This document shows, piece after piece, positions 1 through 50,830 of a DNA stretch of 50,830 nucleotides. The notes under the pieces were generated by a model. The model saw only the letters and a list, made by a program, of their open reading frames with translations, was not told the DNA's origin and ran no database searches. How positions within the stretch are numbered: position 1 is the first letter of the stretch; the number at the start of each line of letters is the position of its first letter. The position numbers were made by a program, and so were the translations under genes. Origin of the DNA: a virus (Duplodnaviria > Caudoviricetes); IMG/VR virus record IMGVR_UViG_3300037521_000133, positions 1 to 50,830 of that record; one strand, given 5' to 3'.

Positions 1-118
1 AAAAAGATTAACTAAATTATCCTATCTTTACGGTGTGTCTGGAAGCACAAATAAGAACTTTACAAATTCCCTCGATTAAGTGGTCTTCCAGACGCTTGGT
101 TGGGGGTTTTGTGTTTAA
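1..118. repeat. Terminal direct repeat, left copy (circular assembly overlap)
   Basis: 1-118 is identical to 50713-50830; the holin ORF stop reads across the junction. Confidence 0.95.
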
Positions 119-5388: not shown

Positions 5389-5514
5389 AATAAATATTTT
5401 ACACACAATACCCCCACTAGGTAGCCGACTAGGAGTGGCATTCCACCGTGGGGATATTGTGCTTTTCTTAAAATTCTTTGTGAGTTCCTAGTCCACTTAA
5501 GATGCGGCAATATA
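5389..5514 (-). promoter_or_regulatory. Promoter plus kissing-loop leader, copy D
   Basis: Minus strand: TATATTGC...AAGTGG-ACTAGGAAC-TCACAAA...long stem-GAATGCC-ACTCCTAGTC-GGCTAC-stem. Confidence 0.75.
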
Positions 5515-6231: not shown

Positions 6232-6330
6232 TACATTCGTAATTCGAAATGTTAATTGTCACTCCAGTGATATTTTCGTTTTGGTTCTTTGGTAGAACAT
6301 AAAAACCCTCGATTCATTCGGGGGTTTTTT
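6232..6330 (+). ncRNA. Candidate antisense small RNA (own promoter box and terminator)
   Basis: TACATTCG at 6232-6239; 6273-6294 is complementary to 6405-6427 and 1015-1037; terminator at 6301-6330. Confidence 0.55.
6301..6330 (+). terminator. Intrinsic terminator
   Basis: AAAAACCCTCGA-TTCAT-TCGGGGGTTTTTT. Confidence 0.8.
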
Positions 6331-6341
6331 ATTGAATCTCT

Positions 6342-6427
6342 GTAAATTTTCCTGTTTTATTATATTTTTTCCTGTTTATTGGAAATTAATGTGTATGTTT
6401 GAAGTACCAAAAGAAACAAAATGAAAA
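6342..6427 (+). promoter_or_regulatory. Duplicated early promoter module, copy 2
   Basis: Near-identical to 952-1037; -7 box TATGTTTG at 6394-6401. Confidence 0.8.
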
Positions 6428-6861
6428 AATTAAGAATCACAACAGGTGCTATCGAAGTAGAAGGAAGCACAGAAAAACAGTTAAAAATCAAAAGCGTTGA
6501 TGAAAAAAGAACAATCGCTTACATTCCGAGTTTGAATCCAGACGCTGAAGGTAATGTTGAGTTATTCGTTGATGCTCTCAATGTGGCTAATAAATACGAC
6601 TACACTCCATCCATGCTAATGGAGGAAAACAAAGTATTACAGGATAATGCAAAGGACACTTTCGAGGCTATGCAAGAAGTTCTACAATCAGATTTAGCAT
6701 TATCTGAGATTGTTTCCCAACGTAAGGTGTTCCTTTTCCATTTAAAAGAAGCTAGAGCAAGACTTATCGTAAATAATTCTGACGGTTTGGACGGTGTATA
6801 CAATGAGAATTGTGCCGATTCATCTTTTATCATACTCCTAGACACTTTAATTAATCCGTAG
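6421..6861 (+). CDS. Hypothetical early protein
   Basis: First ORF behind the duplicated promoter. Confidence 0.7.
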   Translation: MKKLRITTGAIEVEGSTEKQLKIKSVDEKRTIAYIPSLNPDAEGNVELFVDALNVANKYDYTPSMLMEENKVLQDNAKDTFEAMQEVLQSDLALSEIVSQRKVFLFHLKEARARLIVNNSDGLDGVYNENCADSSFIILLDTLINP

Positions 6862-13302: not shown

Positions 13303-13327
13303 TTTGGAATTATCGAATTGTAATCAG

Positions 13328-13446
13328 TATATTGCGGTATCATAAAGTGGCTGGAAATCACAAATTTTTTATTGAGAGTAACCTGTATCAGAATGCCATT
13401 CCAGCGGCTACTGGTATAGGACTCTCAACGTTTAAAACATTTCATT
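13328..13446 (+). promoter_or_regulatory. Promoter plus kissing-loop leader, copy B (replication operon)
   Basis: TATATTGC; AAGTGG-CTGGAAA-TCACAAA; stem TTGAGAGT..CCTGTATCAG-AATGCC-ATTCCAGC-GGCTA-CTGGTATAGG-ACTCTCAA. Confidence 0.75.
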
Positions 13447-13881
13447 ATGAATAGAGAGGTTAAGTTTCGTGGAAAGCAAACATACGGTGGCTGGATTTAC
13501 GGTTATCTTTTTAAAGACATTCGTTCAAGGGGAGCGTTGGCATACATTATTAAAGCGGGATTTGTTCCAGCGGTTTCAATGCCTGTATCAAGATTTATTG
13601 AAGTCGATATTAAAACTATTGGACAGTTCACAGGATTAAAGGATAAAAACAACGTAGAGATTTACGAAGGTGATTATTTGGTAATAACTGGCGCAACAAT
13701 TAACGAATGGGACTTTGAAGGTGAGGTAGTATTTATTGACGGTACATTCTGCTTAAAATCTAAAAATCAACCTAAAAATAACACACATACTGAATGTGTA
13801 AAGATTTGGAATGATGGATCACACGACCATTACAGCCTAGAAATTATTGAATCATTTGAAATGGAGGTAAAAAAAGTGTGA
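13447..13881 (+). CDS. yopX: YopX family protein (paralog 3)
   Basis: [32 protein letters not shown]. Confidence 0.9.
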
Positions 13882-13882
13882 T

Positions 13883-14500
13883 ATGGCGAAATTAGGTTAT
13901 ACATGGTATCCAAAAGACTGGAACAACTCAGAAGCAGTATTTGAACTAAATTTAACTGAGCGCGGTTTATATCGGGAATTAATTGATTTGGCAATGCTTA
14001 ATGATAATAAAACTATTTCAAATATTTCAGTATGGCGTAGGCGGTGGGATGCTACAGAAGAAGAATTAAAGTCTATTCTTCTTAAGCTATCAAATTTAGG
14101 GCTTATAGAGGTTGAAGATCAAAACATATTTATACCAAGTTGTGAATCACGATTGAACTTATCACGCGGAGGTAAAAAAGGAGGTGAAAAGAAGCCTACC
14201 CCCAAGCCTGTAGTTAAGCCTACTGCGAAGCCTACCCCTAAGCAAAAGAAAGAAAAAGAAACTAAAGTAAAGGAATATAGAAAATTCGCACACTTGTCTT
14301 TATCAATTGAAGAGTTTGATAGTCTCAAAGAAGATTATACAAAAGAGCAAATTGATGAAATATTGGATTCGATAGAAAACTATGCTAAAAACACTGGTTA
14401 CAAATCATTAAATCTCACTGCTCGTAAATGGCTTAAAAAGGAATATCCTAAACCAAGTACAAATAAACCACAAATACTTAATTATGACCCTGTAAACTAA
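13883..14500 (+). CDS. Phage replication initiator (YdaU/DUF1376-like N-terminus)
   Basis: WYPKDW...[13 protein letters not shown]; low-complexity linker with iterons; C-terminal ARKWL; upstream of helicase. Confidence 0.75.
14192..14275. repeat. Iteron-like repeats, candidate replication origin
   Basis: AAGCCT at 14192, 14204, 14216, 14228 and AAGC at 14240 (12-bp period), then an A-rich tract, inside the initiator gene. Confidence 0.6.
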
Positions 14501-15504
14501 TGTACACAAGACTAGAAGACATACAGACTGATTTACAAACTTTTCGAAAGAAGGGACTACAACGTGGTTATTCGATTGGTTGGGATTGGGATATGTTACC
14601 ACTAACGATAAAATTAGGATGTACAACCTACATGGGATCAGCACCAGTAAGTGGAAAATCTGAGTTGATTAAGGAAATACAGATAAATCTCAGCTGTCTT
14701 CATAACTTAAATCATGTGATATTCACTCCAGAGACAGGTGATCCAAAAGAGATATTTGCAGAACTTTGTCACTCTTACATAGGAAAACCATATTTGGAAG
14801 GTAAAAATTCAATGACGATTAGTGAATGTGCTCAAGCTGAATACTTCATTAACGAGCATTTTGTAATTATCGATCCTGTTGATGCTGATTTAACAATGAC
14901 AGAACTCTATGACATGGTGAATGGTATCGAAGATGATTTAGGGAAAAAAATACACACCACATTAATTGATCCATGGAATGAACTTTCTGAGGAATATATA
15001 ACAGCCGATTTAGGTAGAGAAGATAAATATTTGTCTAGGATTCTCGGTAAGGCTCGTAAAAACGCTAGAGCTACCAATCGACATCATTTTATAATAACCC
15101 ATGTTAGAGATCAAAACATGGTGTCTGTTGGTGAAGTTAGATACTTTCCCGCACCACACGCTAGAGAGTTTGCTGGCGGTCAAGTATGGTATAGAAAAGG
15201 GCTATTAATGATTATTCCTTGGAGACCACCGTTCGGATTAAGTGGAGACGACAATATTCAATATGAAAAAAACGAACTCCATTTGAAGATTGTCAAAGCT
15301 AAACCAAAAGGTGTTTCAAGAACAGGAACTTTCAAACTGTATTTAGACACTGATAAATATCAATATTACATGCTTCATCCTTTCGATAAAAAAAGGGTGT
15401 ATGCAGACAGGAAAGAAGGCGCACCAAAACCTGTAGAAATAGAACCTACTATAGATTTTGAAACAAATACGAACGATAACGGTAAAGACGATTTACCATT
15501 CTAA
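14500..15504 (+). CDS. SF4 (DnaB/gp4-like) replicative helicase domain
   Basis: Walker A SAPVSGKS, Walker B LIDPWNEL, IITH, KIVKAK. Confidence 0.8.
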   Translation: MYTRLEDIQTDLQTFRKKGLQRGYSIGWDWDMLPLTIKLGCTTYMGSAPVSGKSELIKEIQINLSCLHNLNHVIFTPETGDPKEIFAELCHSYIGKPYLEGKNSMTISECAQAEYFINEHFVIIDPVDADLTMTELYDMVNGIEDDLGKKIHTTLIDPWNELSEEYITADLGREDKYLSRILGKARKNARATNRHHFIITHVRDQNMVSVGEVRYFPAPHAREFAGGQVWYRKGLLMIIPWRPPFGLSGDDNIQYEKNELHLKIVKAKPKGVSRTGTFKLYLDTDKYQYYMLHPFDKKRVYADRKEGAPKPVEIEPTIDFETNTNDNGKDDLPF

Positions 15505-16732: not shown

Positions 16733-16933
16733 ATGATAATAGGGAGAAAAATTAAAATGGTAAAGATGCCGAACTTTTTAAGTTTCGAGCAGAAAGCAGG
16801 AAAGCGTGAAGACGGGTTTAAAACAAATGACGCGATTGATGTGGGTGATTTAACCTCTGAGGAAGCTGAACAATTTTCTGACGAAATGAAACAGGCTTTT
16901 ATTGATCACTGGGATTCACTACATAATTCTTAA
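16733..16933 (+). CDS. Hypothetical protein
   Basis: 66 aa ORF. Confidence 0.6.
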   Translation: MIIGRKIKMVKMPNFLSFEQKAGKREDGFKTNDAIDVGDLTSEEAEQFSDEMKQAFIDHWDSLHNS

Positions 16934-23726: not shown

Positions 23727-23993
23727 ATGAAAAAAAGCGAGACAAAAGAGTACATTTCTGCTCAAAACAAACGCGCAAGATTAAAACGTATATCCAAGCC
23801 TATCAACGATAAAGAGATAGTAATCATTAAAATGGTATGTGCAGAACTTACATCTAAAGAAATAGCGAAAGCAACCAATCAAAGCTATCGAACAGTTGAA
23901 AATAGTAGGCAGATAATTATGAAAAAGATAGGTTGTGATAGCTCATTTGGAATAATGAAGTACGCAATACAGGAAGGTATTTTTAAATTATAA
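23727..23993 (+). CDS. Stand-alone LuxR/NarL C-terminal HTH regulator
   Basis: INDKEIVIIKMVCAELTSKEIAKATNQSYRTVENSRQIIMKKIG...YAIQEGI. Confidence 0.9.
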   Translation: MKKSETKEYISAQNKRARLKRISKPINDKEIVIIKMVCAELTSKEIAKATNQSYRTVENSRQIIMKKIGCDSSFGIMKYAIQEGIFKL

Positions 23994-24358: not shown

Positions 24359-24431
24359 TACATTGCACTTTCATAGAGTAGATTGGTTTATACTTTCGAG
24401 GCTCCACAATAGTAGTTGTGGGGCTTTTTTT
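24359..24431 (+). ncRNA. Candidate small RNA / terminator
   Basis: TACATTGC box, TTTCATAG (anti-start-codon), terminator GGCTCCACAA-TAGTAG-TTGTGGGGCT+T run. Confidence 0.4.
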
Positions 24432-24891: not shown

Positions 24892-24929
24892 AACCCTCAT
24901 TATTGATTTAATGAGGGTTTTCTTTTTTT
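24892..24929 (+). terminator. Intrinsic terminator
   Basis: AACCCTCATTA-loop-TAATGAGGGTT followed by a T-rich tail. Confidence 0.75.
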
Positions 24930-27916: not shown

Positions 27917-28041
27917 TATATTGCGGTATCTGAAGTGGCTTGCAAATCACAAAGATCTTAATTTTGAAACCCTTATACTGGAATGCCATGCAAGCGGCTA
28001 CTATATCTAGTGTAGGGGTTTTGACACGTAAAACAAGTATT
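27917..28041 (+). promoter_or_regulatory. Promoter plus kissing-loop leader, copy C
   Basis: TATATTGC; AAGTGG-CTTGCAAA-TCACAAA; stem AAACCCTTATACTGGA-ATGCC-ATGCAAGC-GGCTAC..TCTAGTGTAGGGGTTT. Confidence 0.75.
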
Positions 28042-28245
28042 ATGGAAATAGTAGGAAAATTATTAGTAGGATTATTAGTAGCGTTAGGATTAAGTTTATT
28101 GGTTTCCCTGCCAGTTTATTGGTTGTGGAATTGGTTAATGCCTGAAATATTCGGTTTGAAAGTAATTACATTTTGGCAGTCTTTAGGGCTTTCGTTATTA
28201 TGTAGCCTACTATTCAAGAACTCAAGTAGCAGTAGTAACGACTAA
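28042..28245 (+). CDS. Small membrane protein
   Basis: YWLWNWLMPEIFGLKVITFWQSLGL; ATG at 28042 follows the leader. Confidence 0.75.
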   Translation: MEIVGKLLVGLLVALGLSLLVSLPVYWLWNWLMPEIFGLKVITFWQSLGLSLLCSLLFKNSSSSSND

Positions 28246-29136: not shown

Positions 29137-29174
29137 ACGGTTTCTAGGTAACTAAGTAATAGGTTAAAACATAT

Positions 29175-29380
29175 GGGGATATGACAGGGAAATGTTCAGA
29201 CAAATACAGAGTAGCTTTTAGCTAAAGGAAATCTGTAGAAGTGATTTTGTCGATGCTTTACTTCCTTGGTGTCAAATGGGTGGCGTGATTCGAATATCAA
29301 ACTAAAGGTAATCACTTACTTTTGATTGTTATCGTATATCATTAGATCGGTTGAAGGTTCGATTCCTTCTGTCCCTACTA
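29175..29380 (+). ncRNA. Expanded tRNA-like RNA (~206 nt)
   Basis: Acceptor GGGGATA/TGTCCCT followed by ACTA; perfect T-arm GAAGG-TTCGATT-CCTTC; ~170 nt structured interior. Confidence 0.6.
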
Positions 29381-29384
29381 AATT

Positions 29385-29413
29385 AAAGCGTGTCAGAAAT
29401 GATGCGCTTTTTT
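29385..29413 (+). terminator. Intrinsic terminator
   Basis: AAAGCGTGTCA-GAAA-TGATGCGCTTTTTT. Confidence 0.8.
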
Positions 29414-29506
29414 ACGCCCAAAAATTAATAACATTACACCCAATTTCTGTTTAATTTTCATTATGTTAAAATAATTCTTTAGTTTTGATTAAAATAACAT
29501 TCTTTA

Positions 29507-31255
29507 GTGTCACGAGAATTCATCGAACAGAAAATAGGATCACAATCGATTGCTGAGGCAAGACGACAACAGAAAGAACTCGCCTATTTTACCCAGTCAA
29601 GCATACAGCAACCAATTACTCAAGCGTATCTAAATCAATGGGTAGAGAAGGAATACGCGGGAAATGATGAGTTCCTAAACTGGATTAAAACGATATTTGG
29701 AGGTAACAACTTTTTATCGTTCTACAAGTATTTGAGTTTTCCAGTACCTTCAGCAAATATCGTAAACAATAAAATTCGACCTCAATTAGAAAGGGTTTTC
29801 TTCAGTGAAGATTCTTTTTTCAAATATACTATTAAGGGTCAACAGGTCGAAACGCCTGAAAGTCTCAATTTCGTTCATTTTGATCAGTGGATTTTAAACG
29901 CCATGATGTTTCGTCACAATGACATTCTTATTACCGATCTTGAGAAGATAAACACACCATTTCGAGATCTTATTTCTATTGATAATGTGGTGGCCTTGCA
30001 GTCATCAAAGAGTGTTATTGAAAGAATTGCGTACACGGCAGCAGTTCCAATCACAAAAGAAGACGGTACAGTTGACATGAGGAATGGTTTTCTCTACATG
30101 GATGACAAAGAGTACATCTTCTATGATGAGAAGGTTGAGCCAATTCTTACAGTTCCTCATGATTTAGGTAAATGTCCAGCGAATTATATTGTTCCTGAAC
30201 CATTTTCAGATGATGATATTGTGCGTAAATCAATATTCTCATTCGTCAATCCAAAATTAAAAGAATACAGTTTCTTGACAACACTACAGAGAATGACAGA
30301 CCCAAACGGTGTTGTTCCTGTAACGGCCATACTTAGATTCAAGGATAAAGGACAAGTTGATGGTGAAGCCGAAGATGTAGATTCTGTAGATAAAGCGCCA
30401 CCAACTCCCCTGTCTATTAGTAGCCAACAATCCAGACAACAAAGAGAAGTTGTAGGAAAAGAGAGCGAAACGCAAGCGGGAACGGTTATCGATGTAATAC
30501 CACGATTAAAAGAAGATGGTTCTATTGATTCAGCAGCAGTTCAGAATTATATCAAGTTCTATCACATGCCAGTTGAGTCGATGAAACACCTAAACGAGCG
30601 CATTCTACAAATAGAGAACGATATTATTCAATCGGTAACGGGTGACTTCAAGGAGCAAAACGAAGAGGCTCAGAACGAAAAACAAGTATCCAAGGGATTC
30701 ATAAGCAAAGAAGATGCGCTTAGAAAAGTGTCCAAAGGGATGTCCAGGATTAGAAAACTTTCCGATTTTGATATGTTAGCGTTAGAATTTGGTACGGAAC
30801 AAGTGACAAATGACGCATTCTATGGATCTGATTTCTTCCCTGAAACTCAAAATGAACTCTACAAACTTTTCGAAATAGCTCCAAACCCTATTGAGCGCAG
30901 AAATATTCTACTCAGATTAAGCCGAAATAAGAACAGGTTTAACAGAGACAAGGCAGAACGAGAAGAGATTTTGATAACATTGATGCCTTATTCAGCAGAT
31001 GTTGATTTTAATACGGCTGTAGATAATCAAAGAATCGATTCAATTAACTTTCAGTATTACACTAGATTTCCATATTGGATCGGAATATTTGAAGCGACCT
31101 ATGGAGACATAGTGATATTCTTTAATGACTTCCCTGAAGGAACGTCTAACGAAGCGAGACTAACATCAATAAACAATTTAATTAAGGATTTAATAACAAA
31201 AGCTGGAATACCTGAGCCACCGAAGCCAGAGCCAGTAAATACACCAACAACGTAA
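29507..31255 (+). CDS. Portal protein
   Basis: 582 aa, first large gene after terL; VPHDLGKCPA motif. Confidence 0.75.
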   Translation: MSREFIEQKIGSQSIAEARRQQKELAYFTQSSIQQPITQAYLNQWVEKEYAGNDEFLNWIKTIFGGNNFLSFYKYLSFPVPSANIVNNKIRPQLERVFFSEDSFFKYTIKGQQVETPESLNFVHFDQWILNAMMFRHNDILITDLEKINTPFRDLISIDNVVALQSSKSVIERIAYTAAVPITKEDGTVDMRNGFLYMDDKEYIFYDEKVEPILTVPHDLGKCPANYIVPEPFSDDDIVRKSIFSFVNPKLKEYSFLTTLQRMTDPNGVVPVTAILRFKDKGQVDGEAEDVDSVDKAPPTPLSISSQQSRQQREVVGKESETQAGTVIDVIPRLKEDGSIDSAAVQNYIKFYHMPVESMKHLNERILQIENDIIQSVTGDFKEQNEEAQNEKQVSKGFISKEDALRKVSKGMSRIRKLSDFDMLALEFGTEQVTNDAFYGSDFFPETQNELYKLFEIAPNPIERRNILLRLSRNKNRFNRDKAEREEILITLMPYSADVDFNTAVDNQRIDSINFQYYTRFPYWIGIFEATYGDIVIFFNDFPEGTSNEARLTSINNLIKDLITKAGIPEPPKPEPVNTPTT

Positions 31256-33445: not shown

Positions 33446-34528
33446 ATGGCTTTATTAGATGCAACACAGTGGAATGATTGGCAAGACACATTCGCAACGA
33501 GCGATCAAAGATTCGCACCTCATGGTGTAGTCGATGTCTTCAAAGAATCCACTCCTTTTGCTAATTATATTTCAGCAGAAGCACGAGAAAGGCTGGCGAC
33601 TACTTCTTCTCTAAGAGAAGTGAAAATCCCAGTAATTAAAGAGCAAACGGTAACGGTTGTCGATACTCCTGGTTTCGAGTTTATTCCTGACAATCTTACA
33701 GAATCAGCAGAATACAGCTTTGTAGCGGTTGATTTCTTCTCTGGTTTCCGTCAATACAACTCACAGTATGCAAACAACACTATTGCAGCAGAGGAAGACA
33801 GAAACATTAAAATGACCAATATCGCTGATGCAATGGCAACGGCAATGGAGGTATTCGGAATCACGATCCTTGAGGCTAGAAAAACTCAAGTATTAGGCTT
33901 TACTGAGCAAGTAAATCACAGTGTAGGAGGTGGTACTTACGTGTTTAACGCGGGTACTGATACACTCGAAATCGACGAAGCAGCACAACAAGAAACAATG
34001 TTTGCTTCATTGACTGAGCTTATGCGTGCAAACAAATTGGGAGGGCAGTACATGTCTTTAGTTAGTCCAGCAGGATTGGCAACTCAAAAATTTGAAGCGC
34101 TTAAATTTGGTGAGAGCAATCAGCAAAACATTCGTGCGCTTGGTATGATTCCAGCGGAAGACATGCACAACTCTCACAGCCTTGCTCCAGGATCAGATAT
34201 TTTCAATGGCTTTTGGGTACGTAAAGGCGCTGTTGGTATTTATGGGAATTTCCCGTTCGACTTTAGAGCAGGAACAACATTGGCAGATCAGAAATGGTCA
34301 GTATCAGATGTAGAAATTGGGCCAACTCGAATGAGAGCGAATATCTACACTAACAAATTTGCGGCTAACGCAACTGGACTTGTAGGAACTGGAACGGACT
34401 CCAACCTTATCATGACGGCTGGTGAAGAAATGGCAATTTGGATTCGTGCTTATTATGTGTTTAAGTTCAACACAGATATTACATCGAGAGCAAATGATAT
34501 TGTCAAAATCAAAGGTTTAGCTGCTTAA
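33446..34528 (+). CDS. Major capsid protein
   Basis: 360 aa, A/T/G-rich, VKIPV motif, position after scaffold, strong start context. Confidence 0.75.
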   Translation: MALLDATQWNDWQDTFATSDQRFAPHGVVDVFKESTPFANYISAEARERLATTSSLREVKIPVIKEQTVTVVDTPGFEFIPDNLTESAEYSFVAVDFFSGFRQYNSQYANNTIAAEEDRNIKMTNIADAMATAMEVFGITILEARKTQVLGFTEQVNHSVGGGTYVFNAGTDTLEIDEAAQQETMFASLTELMRANKLGGQYMSLVSPAGLATQKFEALKFGESNQQNIRALGMIPAEDMHNSHSLAPGSDIFNGFWVRKGAVGIYGNFPFDFRAGTTLADQKWSVSDVEIGPTRMRANIYTNKFAANATGLVGTGTDSNLIMTAGEEMAIWIRAYYVFKFNTDITSRANDIVKIKGLAA

Positions 34529-37849: not shown

Positions 37850-37886
37850 AAAACGGGGGCTATTTATTTAGTCCCCTTCATTTATT

Positions 37887-50427: not shown

Positions 50428-50723
50428 GAAACGTTAACTTTTGGGAAGACTTCGGAATACACATTGAGATAATACTAGCAGGTGTACTTGGTGGTTTATT
50501 ATCTCTCGAAGATAAAAAGGGTCTTTCTACATGGGAGAAAATCGGTGTATTTATGTCAGGAGGTGTTATCAGTAACTATTTGACACCTATCATAGTAGAC
50601 TGGACAGGAATCGGACAAAATTACACGTATGGTTTAGCGTTTCTTCTTGGTTATACAGGATTAACAGGAGTCAAAATTCTTGTACTTTATATTCATAGGA
50701 AGTTTCTCAAGAAAAAAGATTAA
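50424..50723 (+). CDS. Putative holin
   Basis: Three TM segments (LAGVLGGLLS; SNYLTP; AFLLGYTG), basic tail, end of late operon. Confidence 0.7.
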   Translation: MRNVNFWEDFGIHIEIILAGVLGGLLSLEDKKGLSTWEKIGVFMSGGVISNYLTPIIVDWTGIGQNYTYGLAFLLGYTGLTGVKILVLYIHRKFLKKKD

Positions 50724-50830
50724 CTAAATTATCCTATCTTTACGGTGTGTCTGGAAGCACAAATAAGAACTTTACAAATTCCCTCGATTAAGTGGTCTTC
50801 CAGACGCTTGGTTGGGGGTTTTGTGTTTAA
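50713..50830. repeat. Terminal direct repeat, right copy
   Basis: Identical to 1-118. Confidence 0.95.

Follow-up and report, generated by a model that had tools for sequence, protein, structure and literature searches.

The genome of the phage studied here carries four similar leaders at the heads of operons, and the question that they raise is what kind of RNA they encode and how this RNA acts on the genes behind it. To our knowledge, almost nothing is known of gene control in phages of Flavobacteriia and of other Bacteroidota, hosts that have unusual promoters and largely do without Shine-Dalgarno-based initiation. The whole stretch of DNA analysed (50,830 nt) is referred to below as the window. 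It is a complete record of the circular type with a 118-nt terminal overlap (1-118 = 50713-50830), and because of this overlap the first leader, copy A, straddles an artificial end and appears twice. The one sequencing run listed as holding this DNA is a DNA run on a marine sediment metagenome; no listed RNA run holds it.

An earlier reading made from the letters alone, the sequence-only reading, had described four leader copies, A to D, three of them built on a shared scaffold. When the window was re-examined, all four were found where that reading had placed them. The pattern AAGTGG-N-TCACAAA-N-GAATGCC has three exact matches against 0.00 expected from 100 shuffles, and GAATGCC-N-GGCTAC has three against 0.01 expected. 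These belong to copies B, C and D (Table 1), in which the blocks TATATTGC, AAGUGG, UCACAAA, GAAUGCC and CGGCUAC are identical and the stems have completely diverged. Copy A is a diverged fourth member beside them. Only B, C and D carry the exact −7 box TATATTGC; copy A reaches 81.7 bits with model R1, of which it was itself a training sequence, and E = 0.042 with a sequence-only profile from which it was left out. The duplication covers the complete unit, from the −33 TTG through the ATG, and the spacing within it is conserved.

Each copy folds into a small hairpin (H1) and a long hairpin (H2), with shuffle z-scores of −3.6 for B, −2.7 for C, −3.3 for D and −3.7 for A, and part of H2 of copy A is flagged as terminator-like. 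The long stems are unlike in sequence yet still pair, each with 2-6 G-U pairs, as had been claimed. Under constrained folding, the last paired base is followed by 7 unpaired nt in B, 13 in C, 17 in D and 18 in A, the AUG included, with weak outer pairs added by the fold in B and C; counted from the foot of H2, the gap to the start codon is about 14-18 nt, close to the "about 20 nt" given before. The tail next to the start codon is unpaired and A/U-rich in all four copies.

Table 1. Coordinates of the leader elements and of related features in the window
Feature	Position (strand)	Detail
Matches to AAGTGG-N-TCACAAA-N-GAATGCC	13345-13397 (+), 27933-27987 (+), 5498-5437 (-)	
Copy A, H1	33..51 (+)	GUGU 33-36, GCAC 45-48, AAA 49-51; scaffold diverged
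Copy A, X	37-45 (+)	GUCUGGAAG; 9 contiguous Watson-Crick pairs with X' CUUCCAGAC
Copy A, H2	61..113 (+)	X' 85-93, then UUUUGUGUUU; start codon at 129
Copy A, genes behind		DNA methyltransferase
Copy B, promoter	13304..13335 (+)	TTG, 21-nt spacer, −7 box TATATTGC at 13328-13335
Copy B, H1	13347..13364 (+)	GUGG 13347-13350, loop CUGGAAA, UCAC 13358-13361, then conserved AAA
Copy B, X	13350-13356 (+)	GCUGGAA; 7 contiguous Watson-Crick pairs with X'
Copy B, H2	13372..13428 (+)	GAAUGCC 13391-13397, X' UUCCAGC 13399-13405, GGCUAC 13406-13411
Copy B, first gene	13447..13881 (+)	YopX-like
Operon B, replisome organizer	13883-14500 (+)	
Operon B, primase/helicase-like gene	14500-15504 (+)	
Copy C, −7 box and H1	27917..27953 (+)	box 27917-27924, GUGG 27935-27938, UCAC 27947-27950
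Copy C, X	27938-27944 (+)	GCUUGCA; 7 contiguous Watson-Crick pairs with X'
Copy C, H2	27964..28024 (+)	GAAUGCC 27981-27987, X' UGCAAGC 27989-27995, GGCUAC 27996-28001
Copy C, end of H2 3' strand		GGGGUUUUGA; start codon at 28042 (+)
Copy C, genes behind		small membrane-protein genes between terL and portal
Copy D, −7 box and H1	5477..5514 (-)	box 5514-5507, GUGG 5496-5493, UCAC 5483-5480, AAA 5479-5477
Copy D, X	5493-5486 (-)	GACUAGGA; 8 contiguous Watson-Crick pairs with X' UCCUAGUC
Copy D, H2	5403..5462 (-)	GAAUGCC 5443-5437, X' 5434-5427, GGCUAC 5426-5421
Copy D, start codon	5388-5386 (-)	
Copy D, genes behind		small leftward genes without assigned function
Strong terminators further downstream	24398-24427, 24892-24919, 37855-37876	

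The proposal that these leaders head operons is borne out, the genes being those of the methyltransferase (A), of replication (B), of the cassette between the terL and portal genes present in this phage (C) and of the leftward group (D). A Pfam search of 10 neighbouring proteins returned YopX and one sub-threshold match and nothing else. In the window the leaders come after TTG...TATATTGC, which resembles the Bacteroidota TTG / TAnnTTTG promoter; in related phages they come after TATATTTG.

The element that joins the two hairpins is a helix between X, in the loop of H1, and X', in the apical loop of H2. It comprises 7-9 bp in all four copies, in agreement with the complementarity described before, and the X strings given then are right because the helix always takes in the last G of the H1 5' strand. 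In the window copies this helix is worth −9 to −13 kcal/mol in cis, the H1-H2 linker of 10-17 nt looks long enough to allow it within one molecule, and X' lies at least 35 nt upstream of the start codon.

The leaders have relatives outside the window. Two close homologues, L091 and L077, keep the complementarity with new X/X' pairs, and in L077 the H1 stem GUGG/UCAC is replaced by GUAG/UUAC, a compensatory change. A wider family opens the replication module in related IMG/VR phages, searched as loci reached through neighbouring proteins; there, 62 hits represent 45 distinct leaders with 28 distinct X. The leader lies 664-1282 nt upstream of the helicase match in 46 of the 63 loci whose sequence extends 1300 nt or more in that direction, and every match is on the same strand as the gene. 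If the family is defined by an X complementary over at least 6 nt to the apical loop of H2, in a leader that directly follows a −7 box and precedes a start codon, this arrangement is found in the four window copies, in L091 and L077, and in a total of 45 distinct leaders. Two copies also occur in the cultured Tenacibaculum phage Gundel_1, at record positions 16794-16914 and 33891-34022, one directly before a gene annotated as "replication protein" and the other before one annotated as "antirepressor". Several copies with different X thus occur within one genome: four in the window, two in L274 and two in Gundel_1.

The model built on the relatives, R2, gives the window copies no score at E ≤ 1. 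The window copies are tied to the relatives because R1 matches some of them (E = 3e-6 to 0.02) and because one relative, L273, shares the scaffold GGAAUGCC...GGCUACC with the window type; R1 and R2 are related, not interchangeable. Elsewhere the searches returned little. An exact-pattern scan of IMG/VR gave 16 stretches, all chance matches, and two further pattern scans gave 46 and 36, among which L091 alone was real; a pattern scan of GTDB gave 7, about the chance number, none better than E = 0.087 with R1. With nhmmer and R1, 44 IMG/VR loci of TerL relatives (best-segment identity at most 59%) and 20 loci of portal relatives held no leader except L091 and L077. Weak R1 matches in L047 and L175 were rejected on reading the sequences. 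Under strict filters, with the top candidates scored, R2 found nothing in 151 sampled Bacteroidia genomes. A generic scanner for hairpin loops complementary to a downstream loop was set aside as too noisy: it gave 8-21 hits per shuffled genome, and its 162 hits in real loci stood beside 74 once the loci were shuffled.

The family is also absent from Rfam 15, C4 included. At the gathering score there is no match in the window or in the loci of 12 relatives, and at E ≤ 10 no family, C4, ribozymes and riboswitches included, overlaps leaders B, C or D. Two long non-coding stretches of the window, searched against Rfam at permissive E, gave sub-threshold, chance-level matches only, and ARAGORN found no tRNA in the window. 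These results bear on the idea that the leaders are ligand-sensing riboswitches or self-cleaving ribozymes in the 5' UTR, which is very improbable. A pseudoknotted fold, about a dozen invariant junction nucleotides and a terminator-type helix do give the leaders the general look of such RNAs, and the topology is loosely like that of pistol, in which a hairpin loop pairs inside the next helix. However, no Rfam family reaches E ≤ 10 on B, C or D; the junction blocks differ between the window type (GAAUGCC/GGCUAC) and the relatives (UGAA..GGAU), against one conserved pocket; and methyltransferase, replication and small membrane proteins share no metabolite logic. The window leaders are four paralogues within a family of structured 5' leader RNAs, previously undescribed, that belongs to phages infecting Flavobacteriia.

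The fold of this family is supported by covariation. Across 18 aligned relatives the proportion of paired cells is 89.5%, compared with 67.1% after shuffling, and the covariation score of 0.606 compares with 0.187 and was reached by none of 500 shuffles; when the partner strand is slid by 1-3 columns, at most 46% of cells pair. All four helices covary, the pseudoknot included, with 6 of its 9 pairs changed on both sides and 4 of 4 in the loop-closing stem. The predicted covariation of X with X' among homologues was therefore found in L091, in L077 and in these 18 sequences, and a strand-specific structure at the RNA level, with a covarying loop-loop helix, is supported. A reading at the DNA level, in which the inverted repeats would be protein sites or a cruciform, was rejected because the stems contain G-U pairs, the orientation towards the genes is constant and four helices covary.

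The notion of swappable specificity codes is not supported for the window. X/X' behaves like any helix free in sequence, and the other helices covary likewise in the relatives, so that the X/X' "barcodes" look like ordinary compensatory covariation or drift; as addresses they are not established. Orthogonality of the copies is not supported either: cross-pairing of A and B is worth about −8 kcal/mol, self-pairing −12 to −15.

What the leaders do can be approached through the 3' end of H2. In most leaders of the relatives, a run of 6-8 T follows straight after the GC-rich foot of H2 and makes it a canonical intrinsic terminator, which sits just upstream of the first start codon, between promoter and gene; inspection by eye showed no second −7 box before the ATG. 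The window copies are different. The 3' strands of A, C and D run into UUUUGUGUUU, UUUUGA and UAUUGUGU, and the lower stem takes up these U-rich tails; in copy B, H2 is followed by no U-tract whatever, its 3' end ACUCUCAA being paired. Terminator function of the window's own copies is doubtful because B has no U-tract and the tails of A, C and D are paired.

The reading that is tentatively preferred, with a likelihood slightly below even, is that the leader acts in cis as a promoter-proximal gate or attenuator at the entrance of the operon. Each leader would be transcribed from its own Bacteroidota-type promoter, from a start site placed by inference, and the RNA would present H1, an A/U-rich linker beginning with AAA, and then H2 with its foot about 14-18 nt before the start codon. 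The 7-9 nt of the H1 loop would pair with the apical loop of H2 as an intramolecular kissing loop or pseudoknot. The RNA would thereby become compact, and H1, the kissing helix and the upper part of H2 could form one stack. In the relatives, RNA polymerase would have to pass the H2 terminator to reach the genes, and the kissing fold may be either the state that sets termination efficiency or a shape recognised by a factor. No alternative, antiterminator pairing was found by eye. The four window copies are probably leaky, read-through variants, in which the chief role of the fold would be to mark the operon mRNA at its 5' end, or to protect or insulate that end; they are read in this way because their U-tracts are weak or absent and they have no third site of the kind described below.

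Alternatively, the leader would be a static 5' module, with no switching, whose pseudoknot-locked fold guards the mRNA 5' end against decay and insulates the A/U-rich start region, promoter, leader and start codon forming one portable expression cassette. This is rather unlikely. It agrees with the duplication of the complete unit at conserved spacing, with the position of H1 within a few nt of the 5' end, given the inferred start site, with the unpaired tail of every copy and with the persistence of the fold in window copies whose U-tracts have decayed. However, it leaves unexplained the canonical terminators between promoter and gene in most relatives, the third X at the start codon, and the identical junction blocks, which suggest specific recognition.

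This third X is an exact copy, of at least 6 nt, within about 10 nt of the AUG. It occurs in 11 of the 45 distinct leaders (8 of the 28 distinct X), whereas foreign X sequences used as a control gave 6 in 1171. Within the reading as a promoter-proximal gate, the terminator loop of this quarter of the relatives could pair instead with the X copy at the start codon, and H1 would be a built-in decoy deciding whether the translation start is masked. This three-site logic is not transferable to the window copies because there is no X at their start codons: no extra X lies at any start codon of the window or near those of the four copies, the 7-mers occurring just at scattered places in coding DNA, and X' pairs with the window's start regions at duplex energies no better than those of shuffled loops. 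The analogy with P1 c4 made by the sequence-only reading has some substance in the relatives; trans silencing or immunity is unsupported for the window.

The X - X' - X* layout of those 11 leaders, similar to that of P1 c4, speaks for a trans-acting, c4-like small RNA, a reading of low probability. Transcripts ending at H2 would be discrete two-hairpin RNAs of about 100 nt, X' would pair with start regions of its own operon or with leaders of superinfecting relatives, and H1 would be a lid removed by processing. The strong terminators of the relatives would yield such a discrete short RNA, one Gundel_1 copy precedes the antirepressor gene, and copies with different X coexist in one genome. Against it, apart from the missing start-codon X and the chance-level duplexes of the window, X' is already taken in cis by the kissing helix, Rfam C4 does not match, and lysogeny and immunity are not evident, since the window yielded no HTH_3 protein and no tyrosine integrase. 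The suggestion that the RNA replaces a protein repressor suffers from the same want of evidence for lysogeny. In addition, the operator-like direct repeats of a second promoter class point to a protein regulator.

A related proposal, judged quite unlikely, is that the family is a sense-strand, self-addressed antisense system, in which the promoter would constantly produce a short terminated RNA whose terminator loop is antisense to its own operon. The 5' hairpin would then be an anti-antisense lid, whose removal or outcompetition would turn the operon off (or on).

The invariant junction and linker nucleotides, AAGUGG, UCACAAA, GAAUGCC and GGCUAC in the window and AAAGGAAUUAUU in the relatives, may also be viewed as the mark of a processive antitermination element, by analogy with put of HK022 or nut of lambda. 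The folded nascent RNA would bind RNA polymerase, with or without a phage protein as intermediary, and confer resistance to H2 and to later terminators. This is less likely still, even with the features shared with putL/putR as they appear in the main text of PMC9378689 and with strong terminators downstream (Table 1). No strong internal terminator was found within operon B before 24398, and put RNA consists of two stem-loops and a triplex, the word "pseudoknot" not occurring in the main text of PMC9378689. As to proteins, no NusG-like factor and no sigma-70 region 2 is present among those of the window, a sigma region-4-like HTH at 23835-23912 is weak and under the family cut-off, and no candidate protein partner of the leaders was found in the window.

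The leaders are a structured RNA family with strong covariation support, absent from Rfam 15, which heads the replication module in most of the related phages searched and four operons in the window phage. The kissing helix, together with the third start-codon site of some members, is a compact design that could be a natural re-addressable RNA gate, and Gundel_1 and its host are a cultured pair, with two leader copies, in which direct testing is possible. If the self-addressed antisense proposal were true, an X/X' for each operon (with X* in some phages) would let one phage time several operons independently, related phages could silence or ignore one another, and an RNA-only regulatory code would exist in a phylum that, as far as we know, is without Hfq-type sRNA biology.

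Among known systems, the c4 RNA of P1/P7 (RF01695) is laid out as a1/b1 - a'/b' - a2/b2, and the defining feature of C4 is that its antisense loops can pair with a site where ribosomes bind ahead of the downstream gene. The leaders resemble it in having complementary segments on the same strand of one transcription unit, in specificity that shifts by compensatory changes and, in 11 of 45 relatives, in a short sequence that is present twice, once before the antisense loop and once in the start region. They differ in that the model does not match them, that they have one loop pair instead of two, that the window leaders have no start-region target and that they belong to phages of Flavobacteriia instead of Proteobacteria. 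PMC2864571 lists the c4-a1b1 motif. The putL/putR elements of HK022 are described in the main text of PMC9378689 as similar but not identical sequences of about 70-100 nt, present in several copies per genome just downstream of promoters and forming two stem-loops in cis, V-shaped and with a triplex in stem I. The leaders share the multiple copies, the post-promoter position and the two-stem layout as given in that text, without evident sequence likeness and in a different host clade, and any antitermination activity on their part is hypothetical.

In the repZ-repA pseudoknot of IncI-alpha/IncB plasmids and in pT181-type attenuation, a loop-loop contact decides the outcome of termination or translation. 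These systems have in common with the leaders a long-range loop helix and a replication-gene leader; their partner adjoins the ribosome site or is an opposite-strand countertranscript, whereas both partners of the leaders are on the sense strand. The pRNA of phi29 likewise has two complementary loops of one RNA that covary between related phages, but there the loops of separate molecules pair and so assemble a packaging ring, whereas the leaders sit at operon heads. Promoter-proximal attenuators are a further comparison, from which the leaders differ in having no known antiterminator and, in the window copies, weak or no U-tracts. A search of the full-text literature found no description of a terminator loop kissed to a 5' hairpin. 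The system PR'-6S RNA-tR' of lambda is alike in its strong promoter, short structured leader and terminator-type hairpin before the gated genes; the leaders differ from it in that the apical loop of their terminator is held to the 5' hairpin by a covarying kissing helix.

The four leader RNAs that head operons of the window (copies A to D) are present where the sequence-only reading had placed them, and their sequences read as it had described. The scaffold AAGTGG-N-TCACAAA-N-GAATGCC occurs three times in the window against 0.00 expected, and GAATGCC-N-GGCTAC three times against 0.01. Every copy folds into a small 5′ hairpin of 4 bp (H1) followed by a long one (H2); against shuffles, the z-scores lie between -2.7 and -3.7. 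The G that ends the 5′ strand of H1 and the loop after it form X, a perfect complement of the apical loop of H2 (X′). The X of B and that of C differ at two positions, each of which is compensated in X′. The bare X/X′ helices have duplex energies of -9 to -13 kcal/mol; when flanking loop bases are included, self pairs of the window copies reach -12 to -15 and foreign pairs 0 to -8.5 kcal/mol. The long stems have hardly any sequence in common and are paired throughout, with 2-6 G-U pairs in each, which places the structure in RNA and on one defined strand and bears out the earlier proposal of a strand-specific RNA structure. B, C, and D have identical junction blocks although their stems have diverged completely, which argues that in the window the fold itself is under selection. 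The 9-mer GTGGCTGGA of the small hairpin of leader B recurs at 13488-13496, about 40 nt into the first gene behind B; the other copies lack such a repeat.

Leaders of the window and of Tenacibaculum phage Gundel_1 (MT732474.1), with their loop pairs and the genes behind them
Leader	Coordinates	X/X′	Genes behind the leader	Other features
Copy A		GUCUGGAAG/CUUCCAGAC	DNA methyltransferase	
Copy B		GCUGGAA/UUCCAGC	YopX-like protein, replisome organizer, primase/helicase-like protein	
Copy C		GCUUGCA/UGCAAGC	small membrane proteins, terL-portal interval	
Copy D (minus strand)		GACUAGGA/UCCUAGUC	small leftward genes without annotation	
Gundel_1	33891-34022	GCUCUCAC/GUGAGAGC	annotated antirepressor, directly 3′	H1 GUUAC/GUAAC; full architecture
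Gundel_1, second leader	16794-16914	GUAGGAUUC/GAAUCCUAC	annotated "replication protein" and "DNA replication protein", directly 3′	found with R2; followed by nine U

The window is a 50,830-bp IMG/VR virus record of CheckV completeness 100 with redundant ends, the first 118 bases recurring at the 3′ end; copy A spans this artificial end and is thus seen twice. The nearest large terminase of a cultured phage is that of Cellulophaga phage Nekkels_1 (56% identity), and the sole sequencing run listed with this DNA is labelled marine sediment metagenome. The phage is uncultured, and its host is most likely a marine member of the Flavobacteriia. A second promoter class is found in a 117-nt repeat (927-1043 and 6317-6433, 88% identical) that lies behind a strong terminator and heads the ORFs at 1031 and 6421; it contains two operator-like direct repeats of TTTTCCTGTTT(T)ATT, a canonical TAAGTTTG / TATGTTTG -7 box, and a 5′ UTR that is short and unstructured. 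An 88-aa ORF (23727-23993) with a weak sigma-70 region-4-like helix-turn-helix at 23835-23912 (E = 5.4e-4, below the cut-off) sits just ahead of strong terminators (24398, 24892) and the packaging genes, and may be a late-gene regulator. Two stretches are free of ORFs, 1969-2557 (589 nt) and 29137-29510 (374 nt), the latter following the cassette of leader C and ending in a terminator-like hairpin. They contain the tRNA T-arm-like strings GGTTCAAATCC and GGTTCGATTCC; ARAGORN found no tRNA in them, and Rfam gave only sub-threshold matches.

Two close homologues of the window leaders were found. Exact-pattern scans of IMG/VR returned mostly chance matches and one real one, a 9.1-kb contig (L091) that shares the gene order of the window (terL, leader, small genes, portal), whose portal is 69% identical to that of the window and whose leader keeps the scaffold with X/X′ GACUGGA/UCCAGUC. 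A terL search of metagenome contigs yielded a second, L077, in which the terL C-terminus is 83% identical. In its leader, X/X′ is GCCUGAGA/UCUCAGGC, the H1 stem shows a compensatory change from GUGG/UCAC to GUAG/UUAC, and the loop-closing stem is altered from GCC/GGC to GCU/GGC. More distant terL and portal relatives have no detectable leader, and a pattern scan of GTDB genomes, one for each species, matched no more often than chance predicts. In L077, the promoter-proximal string CTTGCAYAAGTAAATATATT is present twice (812-840 and 1108-1136); about 120 ORF-free nt and then a terminator come after the first copy, where another small RNA gene may lie.

A wider family is found at the replication module. 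An IMG/VR search with the primase/helicase-like protein encoded behind leader B gave 80 loci (57-63% identity), 12 of which are matched by a covariance model built on six close sequences (R1), always on the strand of the gene and upstream of replication genes. Reading these matches and scanning for -7 boxes revealed the same architecture as in the window on a different scaffold. About 5 nt after a canonical TATATTTG box comes H1, whose stem has 5 bp and whose loop has 14 nt, and the linker AAAGGAAUUAUU joins it to H2. From bottom to top, H2 consists of a GC-rich foot, the 4x4 internal loop UGAA/GGAU, a closing stem of 4 bp, and the apical loop, of which 8 or 9 nt are complemented by the H1 loop. 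Directly 3′ of H2 stand 6-8 U, and the start codon comes 20-30 nt further on. The hits of R1, of a second model on the wider relatives (R2), and of the box scan number 62 in all and correspond to 45 distinct leaders with 28 distinct X. The leader lies 664-1282 nt ahead of the helicase match in 46 of the 63 loci with at least 1300 nt upstream, and some genomes, such as L274, have two copies with different X. The two types are linked by a locus (L273) that combines the canonical TATATTTG box with the window-type GGAAUGCC...GGCUACC scaffold; they are clearly diverged, as at E <= 1 the window's own copies are missed by R2. Because relatives were reached only via neighbouring proteins, the distribution of the family is a lower bound; no leader was matched in a small, strictly filtered sample of 151 genomes of the class Bacteroidia.

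The pairing is supported by covariation. With 18 relatives aligned by MAFFT and the structure, pseudoknot included, written by hand, standard pairs occupy 89.5% of cells compared with 67.1% in shuffles, both sides are changed in 99 cells compared with 27.9, and the covariation score is 0.606 compared with 0.187; none of 500 shuffles reached these values. When the partner is slid by 1-3 columns, the paired fraction falls to 30-46%, a comparison biased in favour of the structure, which came from one of the aligned sequences. Despite this origin, a large number of different compensated pair types is seen. Both sides have changed in 4/5 pairs of H1, 5/9 of lower H2, 4/4 of the closing stem, and 6/9 of the pseudoknot, so that the X/X′ covariation on which the earlier proposal depended is present among the homologues. 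Among the relatives, X/X′ varies like the other helices, and no selection for distinct addresses is seen, though it may exist. The supposed swappable specificity codes are thus not borne out; the "barcodes" match the compensated drift of a helix free in sequence. Cross-talk between A and B is possible as suggested, given a computed cross-pairing of about -8 kcal/mol (flanking loop bases included) and the core CUGGA common to the X of A, B, and L091.

Some relatives have a third site. An exact copy of X of at least 6 nt (X*) is found downstream of the U-tract and ahead of the start codon in 11/45 distinct leaders and 8/28 distinct X (e.g., GUGCAG, AUGCAG, AGGCAG, GUUGCAG, CUUCGAC, GGACAG), whereas foreign X sequences give 6/1171; its end is usually 1-6 nt ahead of AUG. 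X, X′, and X* change together, which indicates that the terminator loop is able to pair with the 5′ element or the start region. In L262 (4705-4826) and L273 (4976-5109), the 5′ element is no hairpin loop but a stretch of 14-17 nt that repeats the start region exactly and together with its AUG, and this upstream AUG opens a frame running through the terminator hairpin. In a variant (L255 5225-5354, also L268 454), the entire RNA is one long terminator hairpin in which an internal CACACACUU complements AAGUGUGUG, located past the U-tract but before the start codon; this is an X′-X* pair that lacks the 5′ X. The third site is absent from the window copies, L091, and L077; in these, pairing of X′ with the leader's own start region does not exceed that of shuffled loops. 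The three-site members favour a c4-like RNA acting in trans, the most interesting rival, and strong terminators should release a discrete RNA. However, no X recurs at start codons elsewhere in the window, which thus offers no targets, and it shows no sign of lysogeny (neither an HTH_3 protein nor a tyrosine integrase was found), so this alternative is improbable, and the trans-silencing role proposed earlier is not upheld for the window.

The leader has a promoter-like box on its 5′ side and the first start codon on its 3′ side. Reading of the sequences revealed no further -7 box ahead of the gene, and in most relatives H2 has the canonical shape of a terminator. Taken as a whole, the leader is tentatively read as a cis-acting gate or attenuator, the structural part being far more certain than the functional one. 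In members with a U-tract, polymerase would have to pass H2 to express the operon, which would make the element a promoter-proximal attenuator. During transcription, H1 would fold first, and X′ would emerge before the 3′ strand of H2, open to capture by X. The linker (10-17 nt, starting with a conserved AAA) is by estimate about long enough to span H2, so that intramolecular pairing looks feasible. No competing antiterminator helix was seen, which suggests that the kissing fold is either a constant component of the terminator, tuning its efficiency, or a shape that a factor reads. In X* members, H1 and the start region would compete for the terminator loop, so that translation could depend on the state or integrity of the 5′ end. 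In the window, U-tracts are weak in A, C, and D and absent in B, and a longer lower stem takes up the tails by pairing; termination is probably not the main job of these copies, which may serve 5′-end protection, insulation, or factor recognition. A put- or nut-like antitermination element would fit the position and copy number, but the window encodes no NusG-like protein and no sigma region 2, only the weak region-4-like helix-turn-helix at 23835-23912, and we consider it distinctly improbable.

No Rfam 15 family reaches the gathering score anywhere in the window or in 12 loci of relatives, and nothing at E <= 10 falls on leaders B, C, or D. C4, the curated ribozymes, and the riboswitches are therefore excluded at the level of model matches. 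A riboswitch or ribozyme is unlikely, as no model matches and the junction sequences differ between the window type and the relatives' type. Full-text literature searches returned no description of such a leader, which is not proof of its absence from print.

The family also has a cultured member. A blastn search of a phage collection with the leader of one relative led to an unannotated gap in Tenacibaculum phage Gundel_1, which holds the first of its two leaders. In P1, ant is under the control of c4 RNA, and the Gundel_1 leader placed before an antirepressor gene is an echo of this c4/ant arrangement.
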